Positions 2,932-18,789 of a stretch of 30,723 nucleotides of DNA are shown piece after piece. Position 1 is the first letter of the stretch; every line of letters begins with the position of its first letter. Both the position numbers and the translations under genes were made by a program. This DNA comes from a virus. Taxonomy: Duplodnaviria > Caudoviricetes. Below the pieces are notes generated by a model. That model ran no database searches and had not been told where the DNA came from. It saw only the letters and a list, made by a program, of their open reading frames with translations. The stretch covers positions 1 through 30,723 of IMG/VR virus record IMGVR_UViG_3300037692_000017, one strand, 5' to 3'.

Positions 2932-3332
2932 GACCTTGTAGAAAAGTAGGTTGTAATAAACTGATAAGTACAACTTACTGCGATGAGCATCAAAAAAAGA
3001 AAACGGCTGACGAAGTTACAAAACGTAGAAATTATGACAAAGTGCGCGGTACTCGTACTGAACGTGGTTATAATAATCGTTGGTTAAGGTACTCTAAAAA
3101 TTACAGAAAGAATAATCCTCTTTGTGTTGAATGTGAAAATGAAGGAATCGTTAAATTAGCAGAATGCGTTGACCATATAGTTCCCCACAATGATGATGAT
3201 GATATGGAATTGTTTTGGGATGAGAATAATCACCAGTCGTTATGCTATTCTCATCATAATGCTAAAACCGCTAGAGAAGATGGCGGTTTAGGTAACGTGA
3301 AAAGGTATAACCATGATAGAACATCCAGATAA
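2913..3332 (+). CDS. Terminase-associated HNH endonuclease (HK97 gp74-like)
   Basis: MPSAPLRPCRKVGC...YCDEH...RGYNNRW...NPLCVEC...VDHIVPH...LFWDENNHQSLCYSHHNAKTAREDGG, immediately upstream of terS. Confidence 0.9.
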   Translation: MPSAPLRPCRKVGCNKLISTTYCDEHQKKKTADEVTKRRNYDKVRGTRTERGYNNRWLRYSKNYRKNNPLCVECENEGIVKLAECVDHIVPHNDDDDMELFWDENNHQSLCYSHHNAKTAREDGGLGNVKRYNHDRTSR

Positions 3333-3795
3333 AAAATCATTACGTTTGTTAAAAAACGACAAAGCTCACGCTCATCGTTATAAAAACAACAGCGATGTCG
3401 AACCCTCAAGCGAAAGACCAGTTGCTCCTGGATACCTTTCAGAACGTGCTAAGGAAATCTTTAATGACTTTGTTGAACGTATCGAAGACATTGCTCCTGC
3501 GAGTAAAACCGATCTGGATATTATTGTTCTATATGCGAATAACAAGGAGCAACTGGAAAGCTACGAATTGTACCTTCGTGAAAACGGTTCTACTTACGAA
3601 TATCATACTGTTCATTCAACCAGTGTAAAACCTCGTCCCGAAATAACGATGCTAAAAGACTGTAAAACCCTTCAATACCAAATTCTTAAAGAGTTTGGTT
3701 TGTCACCTTCTTCTCGTAGCAAGGTTAAAGTGAAGCCTAAAGAGGTGAAGAAGGAAAATCCATTTGCTGCTGTTGGTAAACAAAAACAAGGATGA
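3313..3795 (+). CDS. terS: Terminase small subunit (P27 family)
   Basis: APGYLSERAKEIF...KPRPEI...EFGLSPSSRSKV...NPF; lies between the HNH gene and terL. Confidence 0.88.
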   Translation: MIEHPDKKSLRLLKNDKAHAHRYKNNSDVEPSSERPVAPGYLSERAKEIFNDFVERIEDIAPASKTDLDIIVLYANNKEQLESYELYLRENGSTYEYHTVHSTSVKPRPEITMLKDCKTLQYQILKEFGLSPSSRSKVKVKPKEVKKENPFAAVGKQKQG

Positions 3796-4000: not shown

Positions 4001-4278
4001 GAGCTAAAAATCCAAACTGCCCGAAGTGTGGTGTAATTAGAAGTACTGACAATACTTCAACAGTTTGGACAGAAGACGGTAGTTTAAAATTACTATACAT
4101 TTGTAAAGAGTGCGCTACTAAATACGTAAGAGATAAACGTTATAGAGTTATGTCTGATAAACAAATTCTTGCCGTTTATGAAAAGCATTTAAATTGTATT
4201 GAGATGCTAGTTGTTGTTTTAAAAGAACGTGATATCTCAAAAGAAGTAACCTTTCCCACATACCTTGAGCAGTCATGA
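3997..4278 (+). CDS. Hypothetical Zn-finger protein
   Basis: CPKC...CKEC; ATGA-coupled on both sides. Confidence 0.6.
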   Translation: MRAKNPNCPKCGVIRSTDNTSTVWTEDGSLKLLYICKECATKYVRDKRYRVMSDKQILAVYEKHLNCIEMLVVVLKERDISKEVTFPTYLEQS

Positions 4279-6137
4279 CAAACCAATTCACCTACGTCGA
4301 AAGACTGCTCAAGTATTGCCATGACGCAATAGCCGATGTCATCCCCAATCGCAAAACCTGCCTACTCGAAAAACTCGCCTGTCAACGTCATCTTGACGAT
4401 TTAACAAAACAAGACGATCCTGATTATCCATATTACTTTGACGAAGACGCTGCAAATAGCAGATGTTTCTTTACCGAATGTTTGCAGCATGTAAAAGGTA
4501 AATGGGCTGGTCAATTCATAAAGCTTGAACCTCACCAAATTATGATGCAGTCTTGTGTATTCGGCTGGTTAAAGAAGAAGAATGATTTGCGAAGATTTAA
4601 TAAGGTATATTTTCAATGCCCGAGGAAGAATGGAAAATCGATAGAGGTAGCGACATCTGGCTTATGGATGGCATTTGCTGATGGAGAAAAGGGTGCTGAG
4701 GTATACTCTGTTGCAGGAAGTGAGAAGCAAGCCGGAATGACATTTATTCCTGCTTGGTTAATGGTTAGCAAAATCGATGCATTGCGAGAATACTACAATT
4801 TAAAATTGAGCGGTACTGCCAAAAACCCTACAAGCATTTATTGTGAAACTGATATGTCAAGTTTCATGCCTGTAATAGGTAGTCCTGCTGATGGGACAAG
4901 CCCTAGTTCTGCTGTCATAGACGAGTATCATGAAAATCCTTCTAGCGTTGGATATGATACAATGCTTACTGGCATGGGGGCTAGAGAACAACCCATCCTA
5001 TTCGTTACAACAACGGCTGGTGTTAATACTTCATATCCTTGTTTTGAATTGTACACTGATAGTAAAAAGATATTGTTAGGAACTATTACCGATGATACTA
5101 CTTTTGTTCTTATATACGAACCTGATGAAAACGATGATTGGCAGGATTTTGAGGTATGGAAAAAGGTTAACCCAAACTACATGATCTCAATAGATGAAGA
5201 TTTCTTGTGGGGAAGATATCAGGACGCTTTAAATAAACCACAAGAACGTAATATAATCTTAACGAAGCATTTAGATTTATGGTTAAATTCAGGAGTCGGT
5301 GCGTTCGATATGCTACGCTGGAATAAGTGTGCTGATACTACTTTAAAAATAGAAGACTTCTACGGTCAAGAATGCTGGTTAGCGTTAGACTTAGCTTCTA
5401 AGATTGACTTAGCTGCTTTAGTGTATTTATTTAAATATAAACGTAATGTTATAAACGCGAATTGTCCAAAGTGCTTCGGTGAAGTAGTTGTTAAAAATGG
5501 AATGAACATATGTGTTAGTGGTAATAAGCTAGAAGATGGTGAAGTTTGTAATTGGGAGAAACCTGTTTCAAGAAATTGTGTTGTTGGTTTTGCCGATCAT
5601 TATATTCCTTCAGAAACAGTAGAAAAGAAGGAAAATCAACATTATCGTACTTACAAAGAAGGTGGTTGGTTAAATGTAACAGAAGGAGCTAGAACAGATT
5701 TTCATTTAATCGAAGCTCATATCAAAGAAGCTGATAAGAATTTTATTGTAAAAGAGCTAGTATTTGATCCTGCTGAAGCAAGTTATTTGATTCAAAATAT
5801 AGAACAATGGTGTGCTTTTACTTGCGTAGAATTTGCTCAAGGACCTGCTAACATTTCACAACCTATGAAAGAAATGGAGGCTATGATCCAGGCTGAAGAG
5901 TTTTGGCATAATGGTAATCCTCTTTATACGTGGTGTGTTGGTAATATTGTTAAAAAACAAGCTCGTTCTGGTGGTTCAACTAAACACTATTTTCCAACTA
6001 AGACCAACGATAAACTAAAGATAGATTCAGGCGTAGCTACTATTTGCGGCTTAGGTAGATTAATCCCTCACAAAGATGAAGGTGCTTATGAGAATAGGGC
6101 GGCTTCTAACCAAGAAAGGATTTTGCGCGTTTTGTAA
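4275..6137 (+). CDS. terL: Terminase large subunit (Terminase_1, HK97-like)
   Basis: Walker A PRKNGKS, Walker B AVIDEYH, motif III TTTAG, nuclease motifs LDLASKIDL and KIDSGVA. Confidence 0.96.
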   Translation: MTNQFTYVERLLKYCHDAIADVIPNRKTCLLEKLACQRHLDDLTKQDDPDYPYYFDEDAANSRCFFTECLQHVKGKWAGQFIKLEPHQIMMQSCVFGWLKKKNDLRRFNKVYFQCPRKNGKSIEVATSGLWMAFADGEKGAEVYSVAGSEKQAGMTFIPAWLMVSKIDALREYYNLKLSGTAKNPTSIYCETDMSSFMPVIGSPADGTSPSSAVIDEYHENPSSVGYDTMLTGMGAREQPILFVTTTAGVNTSYPCFELYTDSKKILLGTITDDTTFVLIYEPDENDDWQDFEVWKKVNPNYMISIDEDFLWGRYQDALNKPQERNIILTKHLDLWLNSGVGAFDMLRWNKCADTTLKIEDFYGQECWLALDLASKIDLAALVYLFKYKRNVINANCPKCFGEVVVKNGMNICVSGNKLEDGEVCNWEKPVSRNCVVGFADHYIPSETVEKKENQHYRTYKEGGWLNVTEGARTDFHLIEAHIKEADKNFIVKELVFDPAEASYLIQNIEQWCAFTCVEFAQGPANISQPMKEMEAMIQAEEFWHNGNPLYTWCVGNIVKKQARSGGSTKHYFPTKTNDKLKIDSGVATICGLGRLIPHKDEGAYENRAASNQERILRVL

Positions 6138-6205: not shown

Positions 6206-6580
6206 ATGGCCGGTTCTTGGTTACAGCTCGAAAGCGACAAAGGTTCACTTAATTCTTCGTATTCTCGCCCTTTAGGTTTAAGGTATCAATTTATTGCTGA
6301 TGCTGAAGATGGGTCTATCCCCGATTTACCTGTTCTTGGAGCTGGTTTTGTTTTTGGTATTGACGTTGAATTTGATGGCGTTACTGCACCAAACGAATTG
6401 ACGTTAATAATGAAGACGAAATACGGTAATACTCAATGGAGTCCTGCGAAACTTACCGCTTCTGGTTTTCTTAAACCGGATTCTCCCGAATCCGCTCCTA
6501 ATGGATTCGTCTTGACTGCCACACAAACTGCCGTTGCTACGAATAGTGCCAAAGGTGTATTGACCGTTCATATAGGTTAA
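6206..6580 (+). CDS. Hypothetical beta-rich protein, possibly virion-associated
   Basis: Strong RBS; no signal peptide; ADAEDGSIP...TAP...NSAKGVLTVHI pattern suggests a small all-beta domain. Confidence 0.6.
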   Translation: MAGSWLQLESDKGSLNSSYSRPLGLRYQFIADAEDGSIPDLPVLGAGFVFGIDVEFDGVTAPNELTLIMKTKYGNTQWSPAKLTASGFLKPDSPESAPNGFVLTATQTAVATNSAKGVLTVHIG

Positions 6581-6583
6581 TTG

Positions 6584-7006
6584 ATGAAACCTATTGATTT
6601 GGTTGTTCGGCATTTTTCTGGTAATCGTATTCCTGGTGATCTGATAGCTTATTTCAAAAACGGAACGGTTGATAGTATTGGCCTATTGATCACTGACTAC
6701 GATGCAGTCGGGGTAACATGGCAACCTGTTTTTTTCAGCGATCCATCTACTCCGATTAGCCGGACGCTTGCTGAATGGTTTCCAATTTTACTGGCGCACG
6801 GAAGTATCAACTTGGAAAACGTCATCTGCTCGGAATTGAAGGGTTTTGCTGTTTATCCGGTTGATACTTCGAGGGAGATGTTGAACAAGGCTTTGCGGTG
6901 GTTTGGATTGCCTGAGGTAGTACCAGAGCCATCAAGTTTTAACTCATTAACAATGGAAGAATTCTTTGCATTAACAGAAGAACAATTTAAAGCATTAAAC
7001 CAATAA
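6584..7006 (+). CDS. Hypothetical protein
   Basis: Open frame between neighbours (ATG 6584 or TTG 6581); C-terminal mini-repeat LTMEEFFAL/LTEEQFKAL. Confidence 0.6.
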   Translation: MKPIDLVVRHFSGNRIPGDLIAYFKNGTVDSIGLLITDYDAVGVTWQPVFFSDPSTPISRTLAEWFPILLAHGSINLENVICSELKGFAVYPVDTSREMLNKALRWFGLPEVVPEPSSFNSLTMEEFFALTEEQFKALNQ

Positions 7007-7015
7007 GGAATAAAT

Positions 7016-9823
7016 ATGAAAAAAATATTGTATACGCTTGCCGTTCTGCTGTTAATGGCAGTTCCAGCTCAATCAGCACAAATAACTTTGTACGAAGCTA
7101 CTGCTGATTTAAGTGCCGGAGTTTTTGGCAATGATTTTCACGACACTATGTTCGACAACTGGATTAATCAGGGGTTGATGAACACAGAGCTGTTCGACTT
7201 CAAAGATGCTGTAGGCACTCCAACTTTTGTGGCGTTTGACCCCGATCAATTTAACGAAACTGGTGACGGTTTAACTGAAGAAACACCGAAAGTTATAACC
7301 ATCGAACCTTCTATATTGGGTTCTGGTTCGGGCTCAATCGACGAAGCAACCAGCACAGTTTATTCGGACAGTCTTGGATCTCCAGGAGACATACTGTGGG
7401 ATGATACAAAGGTTTATCTCAGAAACAATACCGGATGGAGGACATTAGCTATATTGGCTGATGATCTTGATCCTACACCCATACCGCTATCAGTTACCTC
7501 GATAACAGTAGGAACTTTAGGGTTGACTGCTGACATTCTTTTTAACGAGGATGCGTTTGTTGGTACTGGTGGGAGTGGTGGCTGGTCGATGGATTGTGAA
7601 GGACGTTCTGTTGCTATGACTTTAGGTGGAGGAACAGGTAATACACGAAGTTACAACCTGTCAGAAACTCCCTATTTAAATGAAGATTGTGTGGTAGATT
7701 ACATTCAACCTGGTGATGGCCTTGAAAATGGAGTAGGTACTGACCTAGCCAGTTTTTCTGGTTTTATCGTTGATAACCAAAGCCTTGAAGAAACTGTTTT
7801 TGCTATGACGTTAAATATTACCGACATATCAGCAACTGGAGACACCTTTGCTGTTAATGGTTCTAGTTTTAACTATTTGGATTCGCCTGCGACTATAAGC
7901 GGATTATCGTCTTCTACAGAGGCAGTTGCCTACACTGGAACCAATATAGCCTCTTGTACAGGAGCCTCAGTAACAGGGGCAGGACCATGGGAAGTAGATA
8001 TGAGCGCATCGGATGAAACAGTAGATTGCACTATTACTGAGGTGTCCGGAGCCAATCTTGTTACTGTTAGACCTACAGGTGACGGTGATGTGTCTAATCC
8101 ATTTACAAAATCTTCAGGCACAACATCATGGGAGTTAGTGGACGAAGAAACTCTTGCTATTGCTGATTACGTACAGAGTCCGTCAAATACCGCTGGGGAA
8201 TATATCTATTTCACCTTTCCTGCTCAGACTATTCCTGCCGGAGCAACAAATATAGTTGTAAAATTAATGTTCAACGCTGATGATGCAGGCGGAGCAAACA
8301 ATGCCAGAGCTGCATTGAAGGTTGGTGATACTAGATATGGTTTGGTCGATCCTGGTGTTGATCTTTTTAATTTTTTCTATGATTACGAATACATTTTTGC
8401 TGTTAATCCGGCAACTGGCACAGCGTGGACGGTTGATGATGTTAATAGCACAGGGGTAAACCCATTGCAGCAATTCGGTATAAACTCAACCGATGCTAGC
8501 CCATCAATATATCTGGCGCAGATTTACCTGGAGATTAGCTATGATGTAGAGGTTGCCTCGTCGCTACCAACTACAAACATATATGCGCACTGGTTGGCGG
8601 ATAGTGGCATTACGTCAACAGATTCGAAAATTTCGGCATGGGAAGATCAAATTAATGGGTTTGATGCTATTCAATCGGATGAAGCGAGTAAGCCAGTAGT
8701 CGCTGTGGATACCAGCTTAGTTCCAGTGGTGGCATTTTCTTACTCAACTATACCAAATGGAGTAACCACCAGATTTTTAGACCTTCCAGTAGATTTCACG
8801 GTACCCGTGTCAGACTCAACTGTGTGGGTGGTAACAGCAGGGGGGATATCATCCGATAGAACACCATTTTCTCTTGGTGACTCACCTTATGGATGGACTC
8901 TTGCTGATACAATAACCGGCACTGGATATCATGTGCCATCGTTTGAAAACGATATATCAAACTTAGCTATGCTGCCTGTCAATAAGTCAATAGTTTCCAG
9001 ACACGCAGCGAACGCAGGAGAGGGTTTTTGCATAGATGCTGCTACTATATCTAACAATCTCGGTTCACCATACAGCAATGGTCTTACCAAGACAGGTGGA
9101 TCAATAGGTCGTAACCAAAGAGATAACGACGAGTGGACTAATTCAAACATATATGAGATTATTGTCTATACTCCGGCGCAAAGCACTGAAGCTATAGCCA
9201 CCACAAGGGAATACCTGAAAACTAAATATAATATAAAAGCTGATGGTCCAACTACTGAATACGTAGATGGACAGATAATAACTGAGGGGGACAGCATTAC
9301 GGCTGGGATTGGTGCTGTAGCTAATATGGCTTATCCACTGCAATTAGCTGAAAACAATCCTACATGGAAAGTAACTAGCGTTGGTACATCTGGCGCTATG
9401 GTTTCTACTTTAGTTGGCAGGATTTCAAATGTAAATACTCTTTTTGATGATACAAAGTATAGTAGAAACGTTTTAATGGTCCATATTGGGACTAACAACA
9501 TGGCAGGCGGTAGTGACAATGGTGCTGATGTTTACGCGGAGCTTGTAGCTTACGTACAGTCGATGGTATCTGCTGGTTGGGAGGTATGGGTAGCAACTAT
9601 AGTTCAGGACAGTTCTAATATCACAAGCACTAATACCTATAATAGCCTGATAAGATCAAACATAGTGGCAGATGGTGCCACAAAACTAATTGATATAAAT
9701 GCAGATCCAATATTTGATGCTGGTTCTGCAACAGACACAACATACTACACCGATGGCACACATTTAACTGCTATTGGGTACGGGGAAATGGCCAGGATAA
9801 TTAGCACCGAGGGGGAGATGTGA
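7016..9823 (+). CDS. Secreted multidomain protein: signal peptide, SwmB/Ig-like domain, LamG/ConA-like domain, C-terminal SGNH/GDSL hydrolase
   Basis: Signal peptide MKKILYTLAVLLLMAVPAQSA. SwmB-like DYIQPGDGLENGVGTDLASFSGFIVDN. LamG-like HWLADSG...AWEDQING...IYEIIVY...YLKTKY. SGNH blocks GDSIT, GTSG, IGTNN and DGTH. Confidence 0.8.
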   Translation: MKKILYTLAVLLLMAVPAQSAQITLYEATADLSAGVFGNDFHDTMFDNWINQGLMNTELFDFKDAVGTPTFVAFDPDQFNETGDGLTEETPKVITIEPSILGSGSGSIDEATSTVYSDSLGSPGDILWDDTKVYLRNNTGWRTLAILADDLDPTPIPLSVTSITVGTLGLTADILFNEDAFVGTGGSGGWSMDCEGRSVAMTLGGGTGNTRSYNLSETPYLNEDCVVDYIQPGDGLENGVGTDLASFSGFIVDNQSLEETVFAMTLNITDISATGDTFAVNGSSFNYLDSPATISGLSSSTEAVAYTGTNIASCTGASVTGAGPWEVDMSASDETVDCTITEVSGANLVTVRPTGDGDVSNPFTKSSGTTSWELVDEETLAIADYVQSPSNTAGEYIYFTFPAQTIPAGATNIVVKLMFNADDAGGANNARAALKVGDTRYGLVDPGVDLFNFFYDYEYIFAVNPATGTAWTVDDVNSTGVNPLQQFGINSTDASPSIYLAQIYLEISYDVEVASSLPTTNIYAHWLADSGITSTDSKISAWEDQINGFDAIQSDEASKPVVAVDTSLVPVVAFSYSTIPNGVTTRFLDLPVDFTVPVSDSTVWVVTAGGISSDRTPFSLGDSPYGWTLADTITGTGYHVPSFENDISNLAMLPVNKSIVSRHAANAGEGFCIDAATISNNLGSPYSNGLTKTGGSIGRNQRDNDEWTNSNIYEIIVYTPAQSTEAIATTREYLKTKYNIKADGPTTEYVDGQIITEGDSITAGIGAVANMAYPLQLAENNPTWKVTSVGTSGAMVSTLVGRISNVNTLFDDTKYSRNVLMVHIGTNNMAGGSDNGADVYAELVAYVQSMVSAGWEVWVATIVQDSSNITSTNTYNSLIRSNIVADGATKLIDINADPIFDAGSATDTTYYTDGTHLTAIGYGEMARIISTEGEM

Positions 9824-12165
9824 TGATTAAGCCATTAGCTATATTCCTCTTAATATTGCTGTCTGCTTCAATTAGTACTGCTGAAGACTATGTAATGCCA
9901 ATAGGCGTTCCTAATCCCGGAGTGTGGGGAGCGTTTCACCCTATTAATTCAGTAGCACCATCAACTGCAACTAAATGTCCTGAATGGCCGACAGGAGAAT
10001 CAGCAGGATGCTATTATATTAATGCTTCGTCAACAAACCCCACATGCTCAGATAGCACAAATGGCTATCCGAATGAGCCTAGATGCACAATTGCAACATC
10101 CTACGGAGCCGGATCGTATGTAGAGGTAACTGGCGGGCCTTATAATTTAGGCACTGTGTCGTTGTTATTAAATGGCACAGTTGATAATCCTGTGTGGTTC
10201 CGTGGAACGCCTGACGCTATGCCAGATATTAAAGCATCATTTGTTATTAAAGATAGTAAGTATGCGGTTGTCGAGTATTTGGATATTAATAATACAGTGG
10301 CGGGTGGAGTTGCCCTGACTGGAAGCACATTGTCTCATAACGTTGTAGTTCGAAATAACACTTTTAGAAATTTTTCTGCTATTTCTGGTGCTGTGTGTGG
10401 GGCAACTCCACTGCAAGATGGTTCTATCCATGATATCGTCTACTACAACAATTATTTTGGTGACATCGGTAATTGGCAAGCAATAGAAGATGAGGATTAT
10501 CATTGTATAAACCCTGGTCTTTGGGGGCGGCATCCTCCAACAACTGTATATAATATATGGGTGCTCAGTAACACAGCATATCATGTTGCTGGCAGCTTAA
10601 ACCAGTTTCAGGGTGATGTTAGGGATGCCTCTGCTGGAGATAGAGAAACACCGATAAGACTGATTACAAATACCAATCTCCAAAATCTTCATCATGTGTA
10701 TTCAGGGAAAAACTTGATGTATCAATCAAGACAAGCAATGGGTGCGCCTAAATTCACCACAGATGCAATCTATTCACAAAATGTCGCATACAATAGTTTT
10801 TCTATCTCCTCTGGTGCTGGAACAGGACAGGTTTTCCAAGAAGGTTCAAGATATGTCTGGATGCTTTTCAACAAGTATTATGATTTAACATATGGCATAC
10901 GTCAGTCAAATACTAATTTTGTAACGCCTAATCAAGATGCTAGATATATGGCTGGTGATGCAACGTATACCTTTACGGCAGACCCATCCACTAATACAAT
11001 CACTAGTGTAGCGCATGGTCAATCAAACAAAGACTTAATAGGAATCAAACTGGATAGCGGAACTTTGCCGGAACCTCTTTTGATTGAAACACCATATTAC
11101 ATAAGGAACGCTACTGCAGATACGTTTCAGCTTTGTTTAACCACAAATATTGACGACCCGATAGTTGACGTAACCACAATTGGTTTGGGGGTATATTCTT
11201 TTTTTGAATCGTCATCTTATTCCGAGAGGACCGCTGATTTACGTGCCTATATGATTGGGAATGTAATTTATAACACACAAAACGATCATGATAAAGCTTA
11301 CGGCAACACAAGCTCATATAAGCCGAATCAAGGCGTGGGATTTGAAAAAGCATTATATAAAAGATATATTGTTGACAATACAATCTTCGATGTAGGAGGC
11401 GGTATTAATATTGGAAATCAATTCCCGTATGACGAAACCGTGATGAGTGGTGATGTTATTGCTGGAGTCTATGGGGTAGATGATTCAGGGGATAAAGACT
11501 TCCACATTACCATGACCGCAACAGGCGGGACAGACAATACATTTTTGAATTATTCATTTTTCCAACCTCGTGCTGACGATGGTACTGTAAATTTTAAATG
11601 GGCTGGAGCAGAGCCTAGTTCTAGCATTGGTTCTTTAGAGGCACTACAATCATCATCTGTAGGGCAATGCCAGAATTGTTGGACAGGAGACCCAATGTTT
11701 GTTGATCCTGCTGCATACGACTTGCACCCAAAGGCTGGAAGCCCTTTAATTGGTAAAAATGTACGCCATGCTGTTTACGACGAATTTGAGGCCCGTTACG
11801 GACTAAGCATAGACGTAGATTTTGATGGAAACCCAAGACCCCCAACAGCAGCTGAGGGAAGGACTATCGGGGCTTATGAGTTTGATACAGGCTATATTCC
11901 CCCAGATCCAGAATGTGACCAATATCACCCTTCACTGTGCCTTGACCAAACCTCCTGTACCGGTGCTGGTTTAAACTGGTGTGATGAAGCTTGTCAAGTA
12001 AGTGAATGTGGTGCCGAACCAACTTGTGCAGACCTCACCCAAAACGGCGACGAAACAGGAATAGACTGCGGGGGAAGTTGCCCTCCGTGTGAAACACCTA
12101 TGCAGACGGCACGGTGGTTGAGGTTGGCAGCAGGTCCGGTAAAGATTGTTGATCAACCAGAATGA
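9823..12165 (+). CDS. Secreted right-handed beta-helix (pectin-lyase-like) protein with choice-of-anchor-Q-like and Cys-rich C-terminal modules
   Basis: Signal peptide MIKPLAIFLLILLSASISTA. Beta-helix-type repeats (NVVVRNNTF, DIVYYNNYF, IGNVIYN, IVDNTIF). DPMFVD...DLHPKAGSPLIG...DFDGNPRP...IGAYEF, then CADLTQNGDETGIDCGGSCPPC. Confidence 0.75.
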   Translation: MIKPLAIFLLILLSASISTAEDYVMPIGVPNPGVWGAFHPINSVAPSTATKCPEWPTGESAGCYYINASSTNPTCSDSTNGYPNEPRCTIATSYGAGSYVEVTGGPYNLGTVSLLLNGTVDNPVWFRGTPDAMPDIKASFVIKDSKYAVVEYLDINNTVAGGVALTGSTLSHNVVVRNNTFRNFSAISGAVCGATPLQDGSIHDIVYYNNYFGDIGNWQAIEDEDYHCINPGLWGRHPPTTVYNIWVLSNTAYHVAGSLNQFQGDVRDASAGDRETPIRLITNTNLQNLHHVYSGKNLMYQSRQAMGAPKFTTDAIYSQNVAYNSFSISSGAGTGQVFQEGSRYVWMLFNKYYDLTYGIRQSNTNFVTPNQDARYMAGDATYTFTADPSTNTITSVAHGQSNKDLIGIKLDSGTLPEPLLIETPYYIRNATADTFQLCLTTNIDDPIVDVTTIGLGVYSFFESSSYSERTADLRAYMIGNVIYNTQNDHDKAYGNTSSYKPNQGVGFEKALYKRYIVDNTIFDVGGGINIGNQFPYDETVMSGDVIAGVYGVDDSGDKDFHITMTATGGTDNTFLNYSFFQPRADDGTVNFKWAGAEPSSSIGSLEALQSSSVGQCQNCWTGDPMFVDPAAYDLHPKAGSPLIGKNVRHAVYDEFEARYGLSIDVDFDGNPRPPTAAEGRTIGAYEFDTGYIPPDPECDQYHPSLCLDQTSCTGAGLNWCDEACQVSECGAEPTCADLTQNGDETGIDCGGSCPPCETPMQTARWLRLAAGPVKIVDQPE

Positions 12166-12212
12166 AAGATATGAAACTACTATCAATCATTTGCCTAACA
12201 AAAAGGAACAAT

Positions 12213-12563
12213 ATGAAAAGAACACTAATCTTCACCGTCATTGCCCTACTCGCCTGCGGGTTGATGGTACAGGTATCACAAGCAGCAGATCTAAAGTTCG
12301 CATGGGAATACACAGCAGAAGAACAAGCCAACATCGAAGGATTCAAACTCTACCGTGACGGAGTGACCGAAGAGGCTGTCATTCCTGCCAATGCTAGAAC
12401 GGTCACAATTCCAAGGCAAACGGATAAACAATCCCACTCGTACCACCTGACTGCTTTCAATGCTGAAGAAGAGAGTGGTCCATCAGGCACGGCTATTGAT
12501 GTTTACAGCACGAAGAAGTTGATGCGAGTTGAAGGGGTATTGAGTTTGGAAGTTGTTGAATGA
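12213..12563 (+). CDS. Small secreted fibronectin-type-III-like protein
   Basis: aaagga RBS before ATG 12213. Signal peptide MKRTLIFTVIALLACGLMVQVSQA. FN3 pattern FAW...IEGFKLYRDG...YHLTAFN...ESGPS. Confidence 0.75.
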   Translation: MKRTLIFTVIALLACGLMVQVSQAADLKFAWEYTAEEQANIEGFKLYRDGVTEEAVIPANARTVTIPRQTDKQSHSYHLTAFNAEEESGPSGTAIDVYSTKKLMRVEGVLSLEVVE

Positions 12564-12602
12564 CTGATTGATTAGAAACTACTATCTTGCATTTCGCATA
12601 AC

Positions 12603-12650
12603 AAAAAGGCGCAATGATCGACATGTCAACTCCTGTCATTTTGCCTATTT
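12603..12650. terminator. Imperfect, possibly bidirectional terminator hairpin
   Basis: aaaaaggcgcaatga (12603-12617) pairs with tcattttgcct (12636-12646). A T5 run follows on the minus strand, downstream of the tRNA fragment's CCA. Confidence 0.5.
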
Positions 12651-12679
12651 AATCATTAGGTGGCTTACTGTAATATCAG

Positions 12680-12727
12680 TGGCTGGGGGACAAGGGCTCG
12701 AACCTTGATAAGCGGAGTCAGAGCCCG
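12680..12727 (-). pseudogene. 3' fragment of tRNA-Gln(CUG), anticodon arm to CCA; att-site-like
   Basis: Minus strand reads CGGG-CT CTG AC-TCCG-C-TTAT-CAAGG-TTCGAGC-CCTTG-TCCCCCA-G-CCA: anticodon loop, perfect T-arm, Gln-type acceptor strand, G73 and CCA. No D-arm or 5' acceptor strand upstream. Confidence 0.85.
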
Positions 12728-12762
12728 TCATAATACATTTAAAATTTAACTAAAGGCTCTTA

Positions 12763-13017
12763 ATGGCTCCCTTACCTAATGACGAAACTGGAATACTGTT
12801 TAATCTAGCTCTTAAAATCATAGGATTCTTTTTATCATTCGTCGGTGGTATAATAACTACTACATGGGTGCTAGCGACTAAATGGAAAGGATTGGACGAT
12901 AAGGTTAAAGAAATGGAAAAGGACCGTAAGGAACTTAGTGAAAAATTAGATGCTATGAATAATAAACTAGACAAGGTTCATGAACGAATTGATAACGCTA
13001 TAATTGGAAAACGCTAA
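12763..13017 (+). CDS. Small membrane protein (one TM helix + coiled coil), possibly holin-associated
   Basis: Hydrophobic LALKIIGFFLSFVGGIITTTWVLA followed by heptad-like LDDKVKEMEKDRKELSEKLDAMNNKLDKVHERID. Confidence 0.6.
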   Translation: MAPLPNDETGILFNLALKIIGFFLSFVGGIITTTWVLATKWKGLDDKVKEMEKDRKELSEKLDAMNNKLDKVHERIDNAIIGKR

Positions 13018-13042
13018 ATTTTTTACATAACCCTAAATTAAT

Positions 13043-13071
13043 TTGACAAACCTTAATTAAAACGGTATTTT
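13043..13071 (+). promoter_or_regulatory. sigma70-type promoter upstream of the portal/head operon
   Basis: TTGACA (13043-13048)-N17-TATTTT (13066-13071), with AT-rich flanks. Confidence 0.6.
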
Positions 13072-13103
13072 TAAAATAAAATCTTATTCTCTCTGATTAA
13101 ACG

Positions 13104-13292
13104 ATGAAAAAAATATTTAAAGCTATTTCAAACATATTACCCGAAAAGGGAGATTTTTTTCTGTTGTTAGGAGTGGGTTCTATTTTTTGGGGTATTTATC
13201 AGATCCACATTCCCGCTGCTTTCATCGTTAATGGAATTCTACTTGCTGCTGTTGGATATATTAACTCTTTGCCAAAACAGGTTGTTAATTAA
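13104..13292 (+). CDS. Small two-TM protein of the kind commonly found just before HK97-type portals
   Basis: DFFLLLGVGSIFWGIYQIHIPAAFIVNGILL; TAATG overlap with the portal start. Confidence 0.7.
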   Translation: MKKIFKAISNILPEKGDFFLLLGVGSIFWGIYQIHIPAAFIVNGILLAAVGYINSLPKQVVN

Positions 13293-14632
13293 TGGGTCTA
13301 TTATCACCCCTAATTGAGCGCAGGTCTGCTACTTATAAACTCTCCGGTGGAGATCCCGAACTTGTTAATATGTTCGGCGGTTCTCGTTCTTCCAAATCCG
13401 CTCAGAATGTTAATGCCGCTACAGCAATGGCTATTTCTACCGTTTACGCTTGCGTTAATCGTAAAGCTAAAACTATAGCGATGTTGCCGTTGAATGTAAT
13501 GGAAAATATGGCTGAGGGAAAAGGAGTTAAAATAGCGAATTTACATCGCTGTCAGAAACAACTAAATGCGCGGCCTAACAGATGGCAAACCTCGTTCGAT
13601 TGGCGATTTATGATGGATTGTCATCGTCAGTTAAAGGGCAATGCTTACAGCTATATTTTGTATCATCCTGGCAGGGGATATAATGAGTTAATTCCATTAG
13701 AACCTTCTTTCATGTACCCGTTCATGATAGATTCTAACGGAACTATTAACTTCATGCATGAAAGCTCCCCACCACCGTCAGATGGGGATACCCTTTGGTA
13801 TCAGTACATTGCTTCTAACGGGAAGATGCTGGTTCTCAGGGATAGTGAGGTTCTGCATTTAAGGGGATACTCGTCGAATGGTATTGTGGGCAAGAATGTA
13901 ATATCCCTTATGCGCGAGTCTGTTGGTTTAGCGATGGCTACCGAAGAACAAGGAGCAAGACTTTTTTCTAATGGCGCACAAATTGGTAAAGTGTTTGAAC
14001 ATCCTGGCGCTATAAGCGATGCTACCTATTCTCGTTTGAAAGCAGAACTAGATAACGCTACAACTGGAGTTTCTAACGCCCATAAGACTTTGATACTTGA
14101 AGATGGTATGAAAGTCAAGCAAACCACTCTAACAATGGTAGATAGTCAGTTTTTAGAAAGTCGTCAATTTCAAGTAGAAGATATTTGTTCGTTTATGGAT
14201 GTTCCTTTGATTCTCATTAATCGTTCTGGCGATAAGAATCAAACATATGCTTCTGCTGAACAGATCATAAGTATTTTTATTACCCACATGATGGCTCCTG
14301 ATTTTGTTTGTTGGGAACAAGTATTAAATAAAGATTTACTGTATGATTCTGAGAAGTCTAAATACTATTTTGATTTTGATTTCAGTTTCCTTCTTCGTGG
14401 CGATACTAAAGCAAGAGCCGAATACTTGTTGAAACGTTTTCAAATGGGTAGTATGTCACCTGATGAAATTAAGATTTATGAAGGTGAAAATCCAACTGGT
14501 ACTAAAGAAGGTAAGGAATATTACTTACAATCAGGTATGATGCCAATTAAACTTGCTGGTAAACAACCTGCTAAACCAGTTGTTGCCGAACCTAAAGAAG
14601 TCAAAGATCCTGTTGATGGTGAAGAAGAATGA
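13292..14632 (+). CDS. Portal protein, HK97 family
   Basis: VYACV...IAMLPL...RPN...GNAY...EVLHLRG...GIVG...FSNGA...ILEDGM...QFLESRQFQVEDI...LLRGD. Confidence 0.96.
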   Translation: MGLLSPLIERRSATYKLSGGDPELVNMFGGSRSSKSAQNVNAATAMAISTVYACVNRKAKTIAMLPLNVMENMAEGKGVKIANLHRCQKQLNARPNRWQTSFDWRFMMDCHRQLKGNAYSYILYHPGRGYNELIPLEPSFMYPFMIDSNGTINFMHESSPPPSDGDTLWYQYIASNGKMLVLRDSEVLHLRGYSSNGIVGKNVISLMRESVGLAMATEEQGARLFSNGAQIGKVFEHPGAISDATYSRLKAELDNATTGVSNAHKTLILEDGMKVKQTTLTMVDSQFLESRQFQVEDICSFMDVPLILINRSGDKNQTYASAEQIISIFITHMMAPDFVCWEQVLNKDLLYDSEKSKYYFDFDFSFLLRGDTKARAEYLLKRFQMGSMSPDEIKIYEGENPTGTKEGKEYYLQSGMMPIKLAGKQPAKPVVAEPKEVKDPVDGEEE

Positions 14633-15063
14633 GAGGAAATCCCGAAGTTATTAACGCACTATCAAATTGTTTACTCGAAAAACATTCATCTTTGCTGCGT
14701 ATAAACAGATACGAAACTCAGTGTTTATTGTGGGGATATGTAAACATTGGGAATTTTTTTGCCAAAATAGTTAGGGATGACATAAATGGTTTGTTCAAAC
14801 TAACAAAAAGGATATTGTTTCTTGGTGGTAATTTCGATGAAGTTGCGGGAGAGCGACCTGAGTTTGGTGACACAGTTGAAGAAATGCTTCCTGAAGTCAA
14901 AGAATATATTTTAAGAAACATCGCTACTTTGACTGACAGTATTGAAATTTGTGAAAAGAATAAGGATTATACATCCAGATATTTGTTAGAGAAATTGCTT
15001 GTTGAAGAAGATGAGCGATTGTCGGAAATTGAAAGTTTAATGATTCAACATCTTAGATTGTGA
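14629..15063 (+). CDS. bfr: Bacterioferritin-like protein with degenerate ferroxidase and heme sites
   Basis: Gap-free manual alignment to the recalled E. coli Bfr sequence: M-x-G...VIN-x-L, W35-G36, RILFL-x-G (61-67), G80-x-x-VEEML, D113-Y-x-S-R, E127. ATGA-coupled to portal. Confidence 0.8.
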   Translation: MRGNPEVINALSNCLLEKHSSLLRINRYETQCLLWGYVNIGNFFAKIVRDDINGLFKLTKRILFLGGNFDEVAGERPEFGDTVEEMLPEVKEYILRNIATLTDSIEICEKNKDYTSRYLLEKLLVEEDERLSEIESLMIQHLRL

Positions 15064-15068
15064 TATTT

Positions 15069-15807
15069 ATGACAAACAAATCTGGAATCTATAAAATAGA
15101 AAATTTAATTAACGGTAAATGCTATATAGGCTCTGCTTCTAACTTTAGTAAAAGATGGCGTAATCATAAGTGTTTATTATCAAATAACAAACATCACAGT
15201 ATTCATTTACAACGGGCGTGGAATAAATACGGTCAACAAAACTTTAAGTTTGAAATACTTCTATGTTGCGAAAAAGAAGAATTGATTGAGAAAGAACAAA
15301 TTCATATCAATATGATTGAACCCGAATATAATATTTGTTTGATTGCTGGTAATAGTTTAGGAAGTAAACGATCAAAAGAAACGTGCAAAAAACTTAGTTT
15401 TGGCTAGAAAAAACATATCTGAGGAAACACGTGAAAAAATGAGATTATCTCATAAAGGTAAACGTCTTTCAGAAGGAGCGAAATTAAAATTAAGTATTAC
15501 CAACAAAGGAAAAAGTCTTTCTGAAGATCACCGAGCAAAACTTAAAGGTAGACCTTCACCTAATAAAGGAAAGGTGGCATCTAAAGAAACTCGTGCTAAA
15601 ATGAGTGCTGTGCATAAAGGTAATACTATTCGTAAAGGTACTGTACATACCGAAGAAACGCGCTTAAAAATGAGCGCTGCTCATAAAGGTAATACTTATT
15701 CGGTAGGTCGTATAGTATCTAAAGAAACGCGATTGAAAAAATCATTGGCTATGAAGAAAACATTAGCGATAAAACATATCATAAATAATTGGGGTTGCGC
15801 TTTATAA
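15069..15807 (+). pseudogene. GIY-YIG homing endonuclease with NUMOD3 repeats, split by a frameshift at 15398-15401
   Basis: SGIYKIENLINGKCYIGS...RW..H...LQRAWNKYG...E...YN. The second frame carries NUMOD3-like SEETREKM, SKETRAKMS and TEETRLKMS. Removing one T from agttttggc fuses the two into about 245 aa. Confidence 0.85.
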
Positions 15808-15817
15808 GGAGTAGGAT

Positions 15818-16486
15818 ATGGAAATGGAAAGAAGAACTTATGATGCAGAATTGCGTATAGATAGTGCTGGATACGCAAAGAAAAGCCCAACTATTCGAGG
15901 GTATGCTGCAACTTTTAACAATTTTTCGCAATCGATGCCTATTCACGATGAGCGTGGTCAAAAAATAGGGACGTTTAGAGAATGTTTACTTCCTGGTTGC
16001 TTTACAGAAGCTATTAAAATATCTGATGTCAGGTGTTTGATAAATCATGAGCCTGATAAGTTGCTTGGGCGTACGTTATCAGGAACGTTGCGATTGCAGG
16101 AAGATAGTACAGGTCTTCGTTTTGAAAATGACGTACCTGATGTAAGTTATGCGCGTGACGCGCAAATGTCTATGCAGCGAGGCGACCTTACACAATGTTC
16201 TTTTGGTTTCACAGTATCTCCAAAAGGCGATACTTATCGAAAAGATCCTGAAATTGAAAATGGTTATATCAGGGAAATTAGGTCGGTTGCTAAATTGTTT
16301 GACGTTAGCATTGTTACGTATCCTGCTTATTTGGACACAAGTTGTGCAGTCCGGTCAATTATTTCAAATATGAAAGCTGAAGAAGAAGCGGTCATAAAAG
16401 CCGTTAAAGAACAAGAAGAAGCTGAACGTCAGCGAACGCTATCCTTAAAACGCAAGCGCCTTGAACTTGCACAACTGTTAGCGTAA
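15818..16486 (+). CDS. Prohead protease, HK97 family
   Basis: IRGYAATFN...FRE...INHE...LGRT...DSTGL...RGDLTQCSFGF...LFDVSIVTYPAYLDT. Confidence 0.95.
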   Translation: MEMERRTYDAELRIDSAGYAKKSPTIRGYAATFNNFSQSMPIHDERGQKIGTFRECLLPGCFTEAIKISDVRCLINHEPDKLLGRTLSGTLRLQEDSTGLRFENDVPDVSYARDAQMSMQRGDLTQCSFGFTVSPKGDTYRKDPEIENGYIREIRSVAKLFDVSIVTYPAYLDTSCAVRSIISNMKAEEEAVIKAVKEQEEAERQRTLSLKRKRLELAQLLA

Positions 16487-16515
16487 TTTTAAGTAAAGTA
16501 CACAGGAGAATTAAA

Positions 16516-17730
16516 ATGGCAAAAGATTTAAGGGAACTACTTGAGAAACGATGTAAAGTCGTTGCTGACGCTCGGACACTGGTTGACAAGGCCGATGAAG
16601 AAAAGCGTTCGCTGACTTCTGAGGAAGAACGACAGTGGGATGAGTACATGAAGGAAGAACAGCGTGTCGGTAAGGAAGTTGAGCGAGAAACAAAGCTTGT
16701 TGAAGCCGAACGTAGAGCTGCTGAAGTAGCTGTACGAAGTGCTGGTGATAGCAAAACTCCCATCACTCCCGAAGTTGAACTTCGTAAAAAAGCGTACCGG
16801 AACTTCCTGGTCAAAGGTGAGCAGAGCCTTTCCGCTGATGAAATTCGTACCCTGACCACTGGAAGCGATACCCAAGCCGGATACCTTAACTCCCCGCAGG
16901 AATTCGTTCAGAGCCTTATTGAGCGTGTTCGTGACGAGGTGTTTATTGAGTCTGAGTCAACCAAACATACGACCACCAATGCAAACGGTCTTGGTTTTCC
17001 GACTCTCGAAACGTATCCCGGTAAGATCAAGATGATCACCGAGATTGCCGAAGTTACTGAAGACAAAGCACTTGCTTTCGGTAAACGTGAGTTCAAACCA
17101 CATCTCGCCCGTAACCTGATAAAAATCTCTACCAAGATGCTTCGTGCTGATGGTATGGACCCTGAAGGAATCGCGATGAATGCGATGGCCTATATTATTG
17201 GTATCACCAAAGAGTATATGTACTTGCTTGGTACTGGTAATCAGGAACCTCTTGGTCTGTTCGTTGCCGATCCTAAAGGTATTCCTACGGCAAGAGACTA
17301 TTCAACCGATATGGCTCAAACCGATTTCACTCCTGACGCTCTGAAAGGTGTTAAATACTCCCTCAAAGGTCAGTATATGAAAACGGCAAAATGGCTGTTC
17401 CATCGTGACGGTGTTGCCAAAGTTGCCAAACTGAAAGACGGTGAAGGTCGTTATATCTTTGATACTGCAAACACGGTCGGCGCAATGGATATGCTGCTCA
17501 ATCGCCCGATGATTATGTCCGAGTACGTGCCAAATACTTTCACCACAGGTAAATATGTGGGCATGTTCGGAGATTACACCAAATATTGGACCGTTAACTC
17601 CTTGAATCTTCGCATTCAACGTTTGAACGAATTGTTTGCCGCAACAGGTGAAGTAGGGTTCTTGTTCGAGTTGGAGTTTGACGGAATGCCAGTATTAGCG
17701 GAAGCGTTCACGAGAATTCGCACGGCTTAA
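16516..17730 (+). CDS. Major capsid protein, HK97 fold, with N-terminal delta domain
   Basis: Coiled-coil N-terminus, then AGYLNSPQEF, LLGTGNQEPLG, KLKDGEGRYIF, LLNRP, FGDY and GEVGF; strong aggag RBS. Confidence 0.95.
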   Translation: MAKDLRELLEKRCKVVADARTLVDKADEEKRSLTSEEERQWDEYMKEEQRVGKEVERETKLVEAERRAAEVAVRSAGDSKTPITPEVELRKKAYRNFLVKGEQSLSADEIRTLTTGSDTQAGYLNSPQEFVQSLIERVRDEVFIESESTKHTTTNANGLGFPTLETYPGKIKMITEIAEVTEDKALAFGKREFKPHLARNLIKISTKMLRADGMDPEGIAMNAMAYIIGITKEYMYLLGTGNQEPLGLFVADPKGIPTARDYSTDMAQTDFTPDALKGVKYSLKGQYMKTAKWLFHRDGVAKVAKLKDGEGRYIFDTANTVGAMDMLLNRPMIMSEYVPNTFTTGKYVGMFGDYTKYWTVNSLNLRIQRLNELFAATGEVGFLFELEFDGMPVLAEAFTRIRTA

Positions 17731-17755
17731 AACTGCATAATTGTAATGGTTAAAT

Positions 17756-17777
17756 ACCCTGTATAAAAGCAGGGTTT
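17756..17777 (+). terminator. Hairpin after the capsid gene (weak terminator or mRNA stabiliser)
   Basis: accctgt-ataaaa-gcagggt followed by only tt. Confidence 0.35.
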
Positions 17778-17803
17778 AAATAAATTTTATTAGGAGAGAA
17801 ACA

Positions 17804-18253
17804 ATGTCTCTAGCTACTGCTGTAAAAGTAGATCAAGTGCTTGGATATTTTGCCGCTGCACAGACTGCTCGGAAAGGTGCCATTATAGATATGGCAGGTT
17901 ATGAAGGTTGCATGTTTATTTTTCAATTCGGCACAATTCTGAATACCGGAACAATTGCCTGTGATATTAACGCCGATGATGTAAATAATACCGCAGGTAT
18001 GACCAAACTGGCTGGTGGAGCGAGTCATACTGTTACTGCAACCACTGCTGCTCTGACACAATCGGCTATAGTGGTTGATATTTTTCAACCTACCGGAACC
18101 ACTTATCGATATCTTGAACCAATGATTACTTTGGGAGTTGCTAATACTCTCATTCTCGGCATTACCGCTATTCGGTATAATGGTAAAGTGAAGCCTGAAC
18201 TCACCGATGGATTGCTTGCTCAGTCAATTGCAGTAAGTCCCGCTGCTGCGTAA
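17804..18253 (+). CDS. Putative head decoration / capsid-associated protein
   Basis: Directly after the capsid gene with a strong RBS; Ala/Thr-rich beta pattern IDMAGYEGCMFI...YRYL. Confidence 0.6.
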   Translation: MSLATAVKVDQVLGYFAAAQTARKGAIIDMAGYEGCMFIFQFGTILNTGTIACDINADDVNNTAGMTKLAGGASHTVTATTAALTQSAIVVDIFQPTGTTYRYLEPMITLGVANTLILGITAIRYNGKVKPELTDGLLAQSIAVSPAAA

Positions 18254-18263
18254 TAGTTTAATT

Positions 18264-18293
18264 AAGAAAGGAGTTTAATTACTCCTTTCTTTT
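18264..18293 (+). terminator. Rho-independent terminator
   Basis: aagaaaggagt-ttaatt-actcctttctt-tt. Confidence 0.65.
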
Positions 18294-18306
18294 GGAGGTT
18301 TATAAT

Positions 18307-18789
18307 ATGTCTCGAAGCACAAAAGTTTATATGGCACAAGGGGCCGCTGAGTTGATAGCGGAATCTGGCGGTGCCATTACTGCTAAAGCTGGTTCTACTC
18401 TACGGGTTCAAGGTTTTATGCCAAAGGCACAAGCTGTTCCTGCCGCTAAAACTACCGCAGTAACTTTGACGATAGCCGAATTGCTTACCGGAATAATTAC
18501 AGCAACTCATACAGTCGGCGGTACTGCTGCATACACTCTTCCTACGGGAACTCTTGTTGATGCAGGTTGTTCTTTGGATATTGGAGATTCTTTCGATTGG
18601 TCATTGATCAATCTTTCTGCCGCTGCTCTTGATACTGTTACCGTAACAGCTGGAGAGGGTCATACTATCGTCGGTAACGCAATCGTGCAATCGGTTCATG
18701 CAAGTACTGGGCTTATATACGGAAGTTCTGGAATGTTCCGTACTAAGAAAACTGCTGCTAATACGATGGTTACTTATCGTATCGCTTAA
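18307..18789 (+). CDS. Putative virion structural protein (head fibre/decoration-like)
   Basis: ggagg RBS before ATG 18307; Thr/Ala/Gly-rich TLTIAELLTGII...YTLPTG...VTVTAG; lies in the head module. Confidence 0.55.
   Translation: MSRSTKVYMAQGAAELIAESGGAITAKAGSTLRVQGFMPKAQAVPAAKTTAVTLTIAELLTGIITATHTVGGTAAYTLPTGTLVDAGCSLDIGDSFDWSLINLSAAALDTVTVTAGEGHTIVGNAIVQSVHASTGLIYGSSGMFRTKKTAANTMVTYRIA

Follow-up and report, generated by a model that had tools for sequence, protein, structure and literature searches.

Bacterioferritins (Bfrs) built from more than one kind of chain have been described in bacteria. According to the available excerpts of PMC12867745, in several bacteria the Bfr1 chains, which carry no heme, form 24-mers only together with a partner chain; the dimers are homodimers only, heterotypic contacts are of the dimer-monomer type, and changes in the B channel disfavour the monomer side of that contact. 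Met52, the heme ligand, is retained by Bfr2 and the diiron site by Bfr1, and a figure legend in the same excerpts gives the label 'Bfr0' to chains in which both functions are missing. A mini-bacterioferritin (PDB 9qq4), a bare four-helix bundle without a terminal extension, is described in the accessible part of PMC13168243, where the bridge between R61 and the acid at position 128 also holds self-assembling 12-mers. Among viruses, an active Bfr from a lake-sediment vOTU has been presented as an auxiliary metabolic gene, with purifying selection reported (PMC10904782), a Bfr is present in a Nitrosospira prophage (bioRxiv 10.64898/2026.05.02.722434), and phage Dps homologues run to 147 records. 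The accessible text of the two viral Bfr reports, which share with the present case a ferritin-family gene on a virus, describes iron-oxidising or storage proteins and mentions neither a head-operon position nor ligand loss. Published work already includes viral Bfr that is active and bacterial 'Bfr0' paralogues without ligands. A search of largely open-access literature turned up no phage head-operon Bfr devoid of ligands. We describe here a conserved, optional phage pseudo-ferritin whose origin can be traced to an active captured enzyme.

The window, by which we mean the whole contig analysed (30.7 kb), belongs to an HK97-type tailed phage, with tail genes beyond the capsid gene. The features that concern the Bfr-like gene are:

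3313-3795, + strand: terminase small subunit (PF05119, PF03354 and PF20441 cover both terminase subunits)
4275-6137, + strand: terminase large subunit (covered by the same three profiles)
13292-14632, + strand: portal protein, HK97 type (PF04860, E 6.3e-81)
14629-15063, + strand: Bfr-like gene (profile, PDB matches, model, Foldseek and alignment)
15060-15407, + strand: GIY-YIG homing endonuclease, catalytic half (PF01541, E 2.9e-9; TIGR01453, 112 bits)
15400-15807, + strand: DNA-binding half (NUMOD3) of that endonuclease, in a different frame (PF07460, E 2.3e-16)
15818-16486, + strand: prohead protease, family S78 (PF04586, E 5.4e-44)
16516-17730, + strand: major capsid protein, HK97 type (PF05065, E 1.5e-36)

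The presence of both terminase subunits indicates a DNA-packaging tailed phage and not an encapsulin operon. Between terminase and portal lie 7 kb of extra genes (6206-13292), one of which codes for 935 aa that include a GDSL hydrolase domain and another for 781 aa that have no Pfam match; locus L002 carries different genes in this interval. A portal protein with an intein bearing a LAGLIDADG domain was seen at L134:3789-6257. Promoter and terminator matches were as frequent as in shuffled sequence (13 vs 13.7 and 3 vs 2.5, respectively), and no Rfam match was found in 12500-18500. Among the 20 runs listed, all 11 that hold at least half of the region's words are labelled sediment metagenome, four of these being possible sources, and no RNA run is included.

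The gene that follows the Bfr-like gene is not the protease gene but the frameshift-split endonuclease gene (15060-15807), which shares 4 nt with the end of the Bfr-like gene. The final four residues of the Bfr-like protein are common to the window and L082, the other locus with this endonuclease junction. L002 and L082 have the endonuclease gene unsplit at this position (226 and 296 aa, respectively), and the tblastn alignment of the L082 protein with the window's copy shifts from one frame to another. No indel was found at the break in four runs, and the X1, X5 and X9 contigs span it without difference. An X5 loose end at 15048 resembles an endonuclease-free allele, and related endonucleases are present in L252 and L253. 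Homing endonucleases (5 loci) and unrelated small ORFs (5 loci) have also entered the portal-protease junction, and the small ORFs inserted after the portal gene mark it as an insertion hot spot. These post-portal ORFs, of 59-92 aa (L104:261-536, L108:5825-6004, L118:5292-5510, L125:1691-1969 and L251:2285-2491), gave no Pfam match above the cut-off. A sharp mosaic boundary separates the portal gene from what follows (window 14630 vs L002:4826): DNA identity to L002 is about 94% through the portal, and 57-72% from the first Bfr-like codons through the protease.

The Bfr-like gene is a stop-free ORF of 144 aa; its start codon and the stop codon of the portal gene overlap in the sequence ATGA. 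An earlier note on this DNA, made from the sequence alone, had described just such an intact, portal-coupled frame and had aligned its product without gaps to E. coli Bfr; the translation and an alignment with the Bfr of the E. coli K-12 genome (in register, ungapped, 22% identical) bear out both. The HMM search and residue mapping that the note had proposed as a check gave a ferritin-fold match (Pfam profile PF00210, E 6.3e-12, above the cut-off), and the TIGR00754 score, 50.9 bits, is below the curated cut-off of 125.55. Bfr or ferroxidase entries account for 47 of the 49 PDB sequence matches. The AlphaFold2 model (pLDDT 91.5) has helices at 5-34, 38-64, 83-110 and 114-143, and its top Foldseek matches are all Bfr (TM by query 0.86-0.93). 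It ends with helix D; the fifth helix, helix E of the four-fold axis, is absent, as the note had said. PHROGs holds no family for the protein, and tblastn in an annotated phage collection returned 6 and 10 records that are 25-36% identical and either ordinary Bfr or unannotated. With this one protein as query, a scan of viral sequences matched just L001, falsely and in the wrong frame. Third-position GC is 0.29, at the level of the portal (0.31) and protease (0.28) genes and not of the capsid gene (0.44), and thus gives no sign of high expression.

In Salmonella Bfr numbering, the residues at the former functional sites are K18, I25, D51, I52, G54, I94, E127 and R130. Only one of the six diiron ligands, E127, is therefore left (E18, E51, H54, E94 and H130 are lost), and the heme ligand Met52 and Tyr25 are both replaced by Ile. 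Every one of these substitutions had been read correctly in the earlier note, as had the retention of W35-G36 and G80, and its view of a fold retained after loss of the chemistry agrees with the ligand mapping and the model. M1, R61, Y114, D128 and E135 are also retained, together with the His19 of the phage clade.

Two groups of relatives were found, a tight one of 143-148 aa and a larger one of 154-161 aa. The protein counts mix members with and without DNA, most having no genomic context, and the phage origin of the context-less proteins is inferred from their tree position and the common His19. All six diiron ligands are present in 59/59 proteins of the intact phage group and in the 27/27 nearest cellular Bfrs, which come from many anaerobe phyla; Met52 is kept in 12 and absent in 47 of the 59. 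The 26 ligand-poor proteins, which all lack helix E and measure 143-148 aa, keep none (7), one (4) or two (15) of the ligands. E18, H54 and E94 are found in none of them, E51 and M52 in one each, E127 in 18 and H130 in 15, and the window's H130R is atypical of the family. His19 (window codon 19, 14683-14685) is present in 59/59 intact and 24/26 ligand-poor proteins, whereas the cellular Bfrs have Leu (27/27). Position 19, Leu19 of cellular Bfr, presumably belongs to the heme pocket.

After merging of duplicates, 19 distinct loci with DNA carry a Bfr gene between portal and protease, in some cases next to an endonuclease gene or a small ORF. Nine are ligand-poor (the window, L002, L082, L083, L085, L103, L104, L105 and L117), nine are intact (L108, L119, L123, L125, L251-L254 and L258, the last with its start cut off) and one, L107, is part-eroded; the junction is seen in part at L104, where only the first downstream codons are available, and at L258, which has no upstream DNA. 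The L107 gene (L107:6001-6465) keeps four of six ligands, Met52 and helix E. The Bfr tree puts L107 close to the ligand-poor clade (79.1/83) and the portal tree puts it elsewhere, a conflict that may indicate a second erosion. A 143-aa ferritin-like gene with six ligands was also seen in an unrelated phage, immediately upstream of apparent terminase genes (L259:224-655). GTDB yielded 16 cellular Bfrs, 54 portals at 38% or less and nothing for the intact phage profile; no prophage or isolate relative was found in GTDB or the annotated phage collection, the best capsid match being 40%.

The maximum-likelihood (ML) Bfr tree used 58 of the aligned proteins, and branch supports were read from unrooted splits. 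Inside cellular Bfr, the phage copies together make up a single clade (98.8/100), within which those that are ligand-poor are a nested clade of their own (97.1/100). On the portal tree, the Bfr-bearing phages and the ligand-poor phages likewise form clades, each with support of 100. The gene is missing from six outgroup loci, and none of 193 more distant head-module loci carries it, in a scan run without a positive control that a distant Dps could escape. L118 and L121, nested in the clade with support of 100 and 97, are also without the gene, which shows it to be optional. The trees, the outgroup absence, these two loci and the distant loci together show a single acquisition at the portal-protease junction, after which the gene was lost at least twice and the chemistry disappeared completely once. 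The ligand-poor lineage descends from a full-length Bfr with helix E. The counts suggest that Met52 was lost first; the tree supports this order weakly, with 39.9/73 and 83.1/76 at the splits that bear on whether Met52-bearing copies are basal.

The ligand-poor gene is under purifying selection about 2.5 times weaker than that on the intact copies. One-ratio (M0) estimates of omega were 0.088 for nine ligand-poor genes (LRT 307 vs omega 1) and 0.035 for eight intact genes, with most ligand-poor pairs near synonymous saturation and recombination crossing the ends of the Bfr-like gene. The corresponding protease values are 0.063 and 0.029; L083 and L085 have an identical protease. Codons 14-111 of the ligand-poor genes alone gave 0.064, and the four least saturated ligand-poor genes gave 0.196 vs 0.074 for three close intact genes. 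ML comparison rejected omega 1 in 9/9 ligand-poor pairs, with 0.12-0.37 in the five least saturated, so that the dN/dS check proposed in the earlier note rejects neutrality on the tree and pair by pair. A counting method gave 0.13-1.22 over the 33 defined of 36 ligand-poor pairs. No stop or frameshift occurs in any of the nine ligand-poor genes, and a search with the portal, made without regard to this gene, arrived at four of them too; in neutral simulations at three scales, down to a quarter of the tree length, 0/300 kept all nine frames open. In run X5, seven of the eight Bfr-like variants listed are synonymous. M2a and M8 brought no gain over M1a and M7, that is, no sign of positive selection. 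Conservation of helix D is partly at the DNA level (branch scale 0.45), and the former ligand positions 18, 51, 52, 54 and 94 are among the freer sites.

Twelve columns, including M1, R61 and E135, are invariant in 26/26 ligand-poor proteins; position 128 is acidic in 26/26 and position 114 aromatic in 25/26. M1, R61, acid 128 and E135, with Y114, correspond to known dimer-dimer assembly residues, and to judge from the sequences would make the same contacts as in cellular Bfr. The positions of the two-fold network, as given in the excerpts of PMC12867745, drift: their mean top-residue frequency is 0.37, compared with 0.80 in the R61/E128/Y114/R117/D113 set and 0.56 over all sites. Four of six B-channel positions (34, 132, 136 and 139) are changed. 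Gly34, part of the 12-mer signature in the accessible text of PMC13168243, is absent, being K in most ligand-poor proteins and L34 in the window, which makes a self-built 12-mer less likely.

Set against the described systems, the protein stands outside functional Bfr, mini-bacterioferritin, Dps and encapsulin cargo, since each comparison fails on a tested feature. With functional Bfr (TIGR00754, PF00210; PDB 1bcf, 3ise and 9iig) it shares fold, register, TM of up to 0.93 and the residues M1, R61, Y114, acid 128 and E135; it differs in its single remaining ligand, the absence of Met52, Tyr25 and helix E, the altered B channel, a score below the family cut-off and its phage head operon, in place of a bfd-bfr locus. 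It resembles mini-bacterioferritin in its bare bundle, lack of a terminal extension and R61-acid bridge; however, the signature His29/Gly34/Met52 known from the excerpts reads E29/L34/I52, the diiron site is absent and the phage form descends from a full-length Bfr. Unlike Dps and DpsL, it has no extra helix in the B-C loop (residues 65-82 are non-helical, with pLDDT 64 at 71-80). The likeness to encapsulin systems with ferritin-like cargo lies in a ferritin-like gene beside an HK97-fold shell gene (accessible part of PMC8346489), but the operon here is viral, with terminase, portal, protease and tail genes. The targeting peptide of Family 1 cargo is also missing, 0/26 proteins having a tail past helix D in alignments that were compared by eye with the consensus quoted in that part. 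By analogy, the protein would work most like a specialised hetero-Bfr chain (Bfr1, Bfr2 and 'Bfr0' in the excerpts of PMC12867745; PDB 9h1u, 9iig and 9bts), in which function is lost while assembly surfaces are kept. The intact phage copies without Met52 resemble Bfr1, and the 'Bfr0' label matches the ligand-less phage form. Bfr2 and Bfr1 each keep one function, whereas the virus-encoded chain has neither, nor helix E; co-assembly has been shown for the bacterial chains.

The explanation we put first, tentatively and at rather less than an even chance, is that the protein is an inert subunit that co-assembles with the host Bfr cage and dilutes or caps it. It has no chemistry, four-fold axis or 12-mer signature, yet dimer-dimer contacts are kept, so that most simply a partner would supply the rest; the bacterial hetero-cages, with self-pairing and cross-chain contact at the dimer-dimer face, are the precedent for this order of preference. 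The chain would be translated late, coupled to the portal gene through the ATGA overlap, and would form homodimers on the two-fold face, which drifts fast. Such a homodimer might then dock on host Bfr, which is presumed to be present, by way of its conserved dimer-dimer surface, in the manner of Bfr1 chains that lack heme. Without helix E, heme and ferroxidase, iron uptake or release could be lowered, or cage closure stalled; every step from expression onward is inferred. Among the repurposed roles suggested in the earlier note, which included a poison subunit and a decoy, co-assembly is modestly favoured by the conservation of the dimer-dimer residues. Several observations weigh against it: the invariant residues may serve folding, the R61-acid 128 bridge serves self-assembling 12-mers too (PMC13168243, accessible part), the changed B channel disfavours the monomer side of the contact (PMC12867745, excerpts), a late-operon position suits host takeover poorly, and constraint is relaxed, pairs are near-saturated and there is no sign of high expression. 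A less likely but serious alternative is an optional head component: active in ancestors and inert here, the protein would enter the prohead together with the protease or assist portal or prohead assembly, as a viral counterpart of encapsulin cargo. All 19 loci with DNA have the gene in the portal-protease junction, it is present in 8/8 of the ligand-poor phages on the portal tree, and Bfr is a proposed cargo of encapsulins in the accessible part of PMC8346489. Host Bfr has also turned up in purified virions (2 peptides in PMC9206674), from which a phage-encoded chain would have to be told apart. The proteases of L123 and L254 (L123:3151-4080 and L254:5452-6411) carry at their C-terminal end a Cys-rich module, with 15 and 14 Cys respectively, which has no Pfam match and is absent from the close relative L253. 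Three BFVD entries named 'Prohead protease' (A0A6J7WIS1, A0A6J7XDU5 and A0A6J7WPK9) match the four-helix model with TM 0.77-0.81 and weak E values of 0.008-0.03, a hint from predicted models at possible ferritin-protease fusions in other phages. No such fusion was found in any sequence scanned: not by Pfam among 26 long or intervening proteins, not among the best 60 of the 147 E. coli Dps matches and not in the 193 background loci, where the same lack of a positive control applies to the scan. The absence of the gene from L118 and L121 makes an essential role in head assembly unlikely, and the lack of a C-terminal extension or targeting peptide, a tail that varies freely among members, a junction open to endonucleases and unrelated ORFs, and the gene-free distant loci also weigh against a head component. 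A broader scheme, in which the heads of HK97-type phages take up a captured ferritin in the manner of encapsulins, first as an active heme-less iron trap shielding packaged DNA and then, here, as an inert virion part or a subunit sabotaging the host iron store, seems rather doubtful.

About as improbable as that scheme is a vestigial spacer, whose frame, once iron chemistry had become useless, would be kept to hand ribosomes from portal to protease and whose sequence would be constrained only for folding and solubility. In L083, L085, L103 and L105 the gene overlaps both the portal stop and the protease start, each as ATGA, and its last codons carry a purine-rich stretch before the protease start; relaxed constraint and the hydrophobic residues that fill former ligand sites (20/26 at position 18) also agree with this. 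Deletion was nevertheless available, since gene-free relatives couple portal and protease directly (gaps of -3 to 10 nt), and purifying selection acts on codons 14-111, away from both overlaps. Charged inter-subunit residues, not just the core, are invariant in 26/26 proteins, and in the window the endonuclease gene, not the protease gene, comes next. A new ligand site, binding another metal or a small molecule through His19, the remaining E127 and H130 and extra cysteines, is quite unlikely. The spread of His19 through the phage proteins, the persistence of E127 and H130 in more than half of the ligand-poor ones and a median Cys count of 4 vs 1 fit such a site, but the window protein has R130, L002 has N19 and N130, seven of the 26 keep no ligand at all, and the extra Cys share no column except C32, which is present in cellular Bfrs too. 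Neutral decay of a moron, a pseudogene in progress, is already largely refuted and very improbable indeed. The product is 57% identical to that of L002 while the portals are 98% identical, the adjoining endonuclease is frameshifted and one counting-method pair reaches omega 1.22; however, the drop in identity coincides with the recombination boundary at the portal end and the protease has diverged too, omega 1 is rejected in every ML test, and all nine genes are open, including the four reached without regard to the gene. The earlier note had said that its reading would fall if phage homologues had intact ligands and this copy evolved neutrally; the first half of that picture is real (59/59), yet neutral evolution is rejected. 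Homologues with intact ligands at the same locus imply that the ligand-less form was derived from an ordinary captured Bfr.

A 'bacterioferritin' label on a viral contig, such as the source name of P0003, need not mean an iron-oxidising auxiliary gene. In the literature searched, no description was found of a phage that controls its host's iron through poisoned subunits; should the inert form enter host cages, it would provide an example, and it would also be a natural probe of the assembly rules of hetero-ferritins. If it is a head component instead, it would link virion assembly to cargo loading of the encapsulin type. One fixed locus in the clade holds a staged record of the passage from enzyme to pseudo-enzyme, from cellular Bfr through a phage copy with Met52 and a copy without the heme ligand to one without chemistry.
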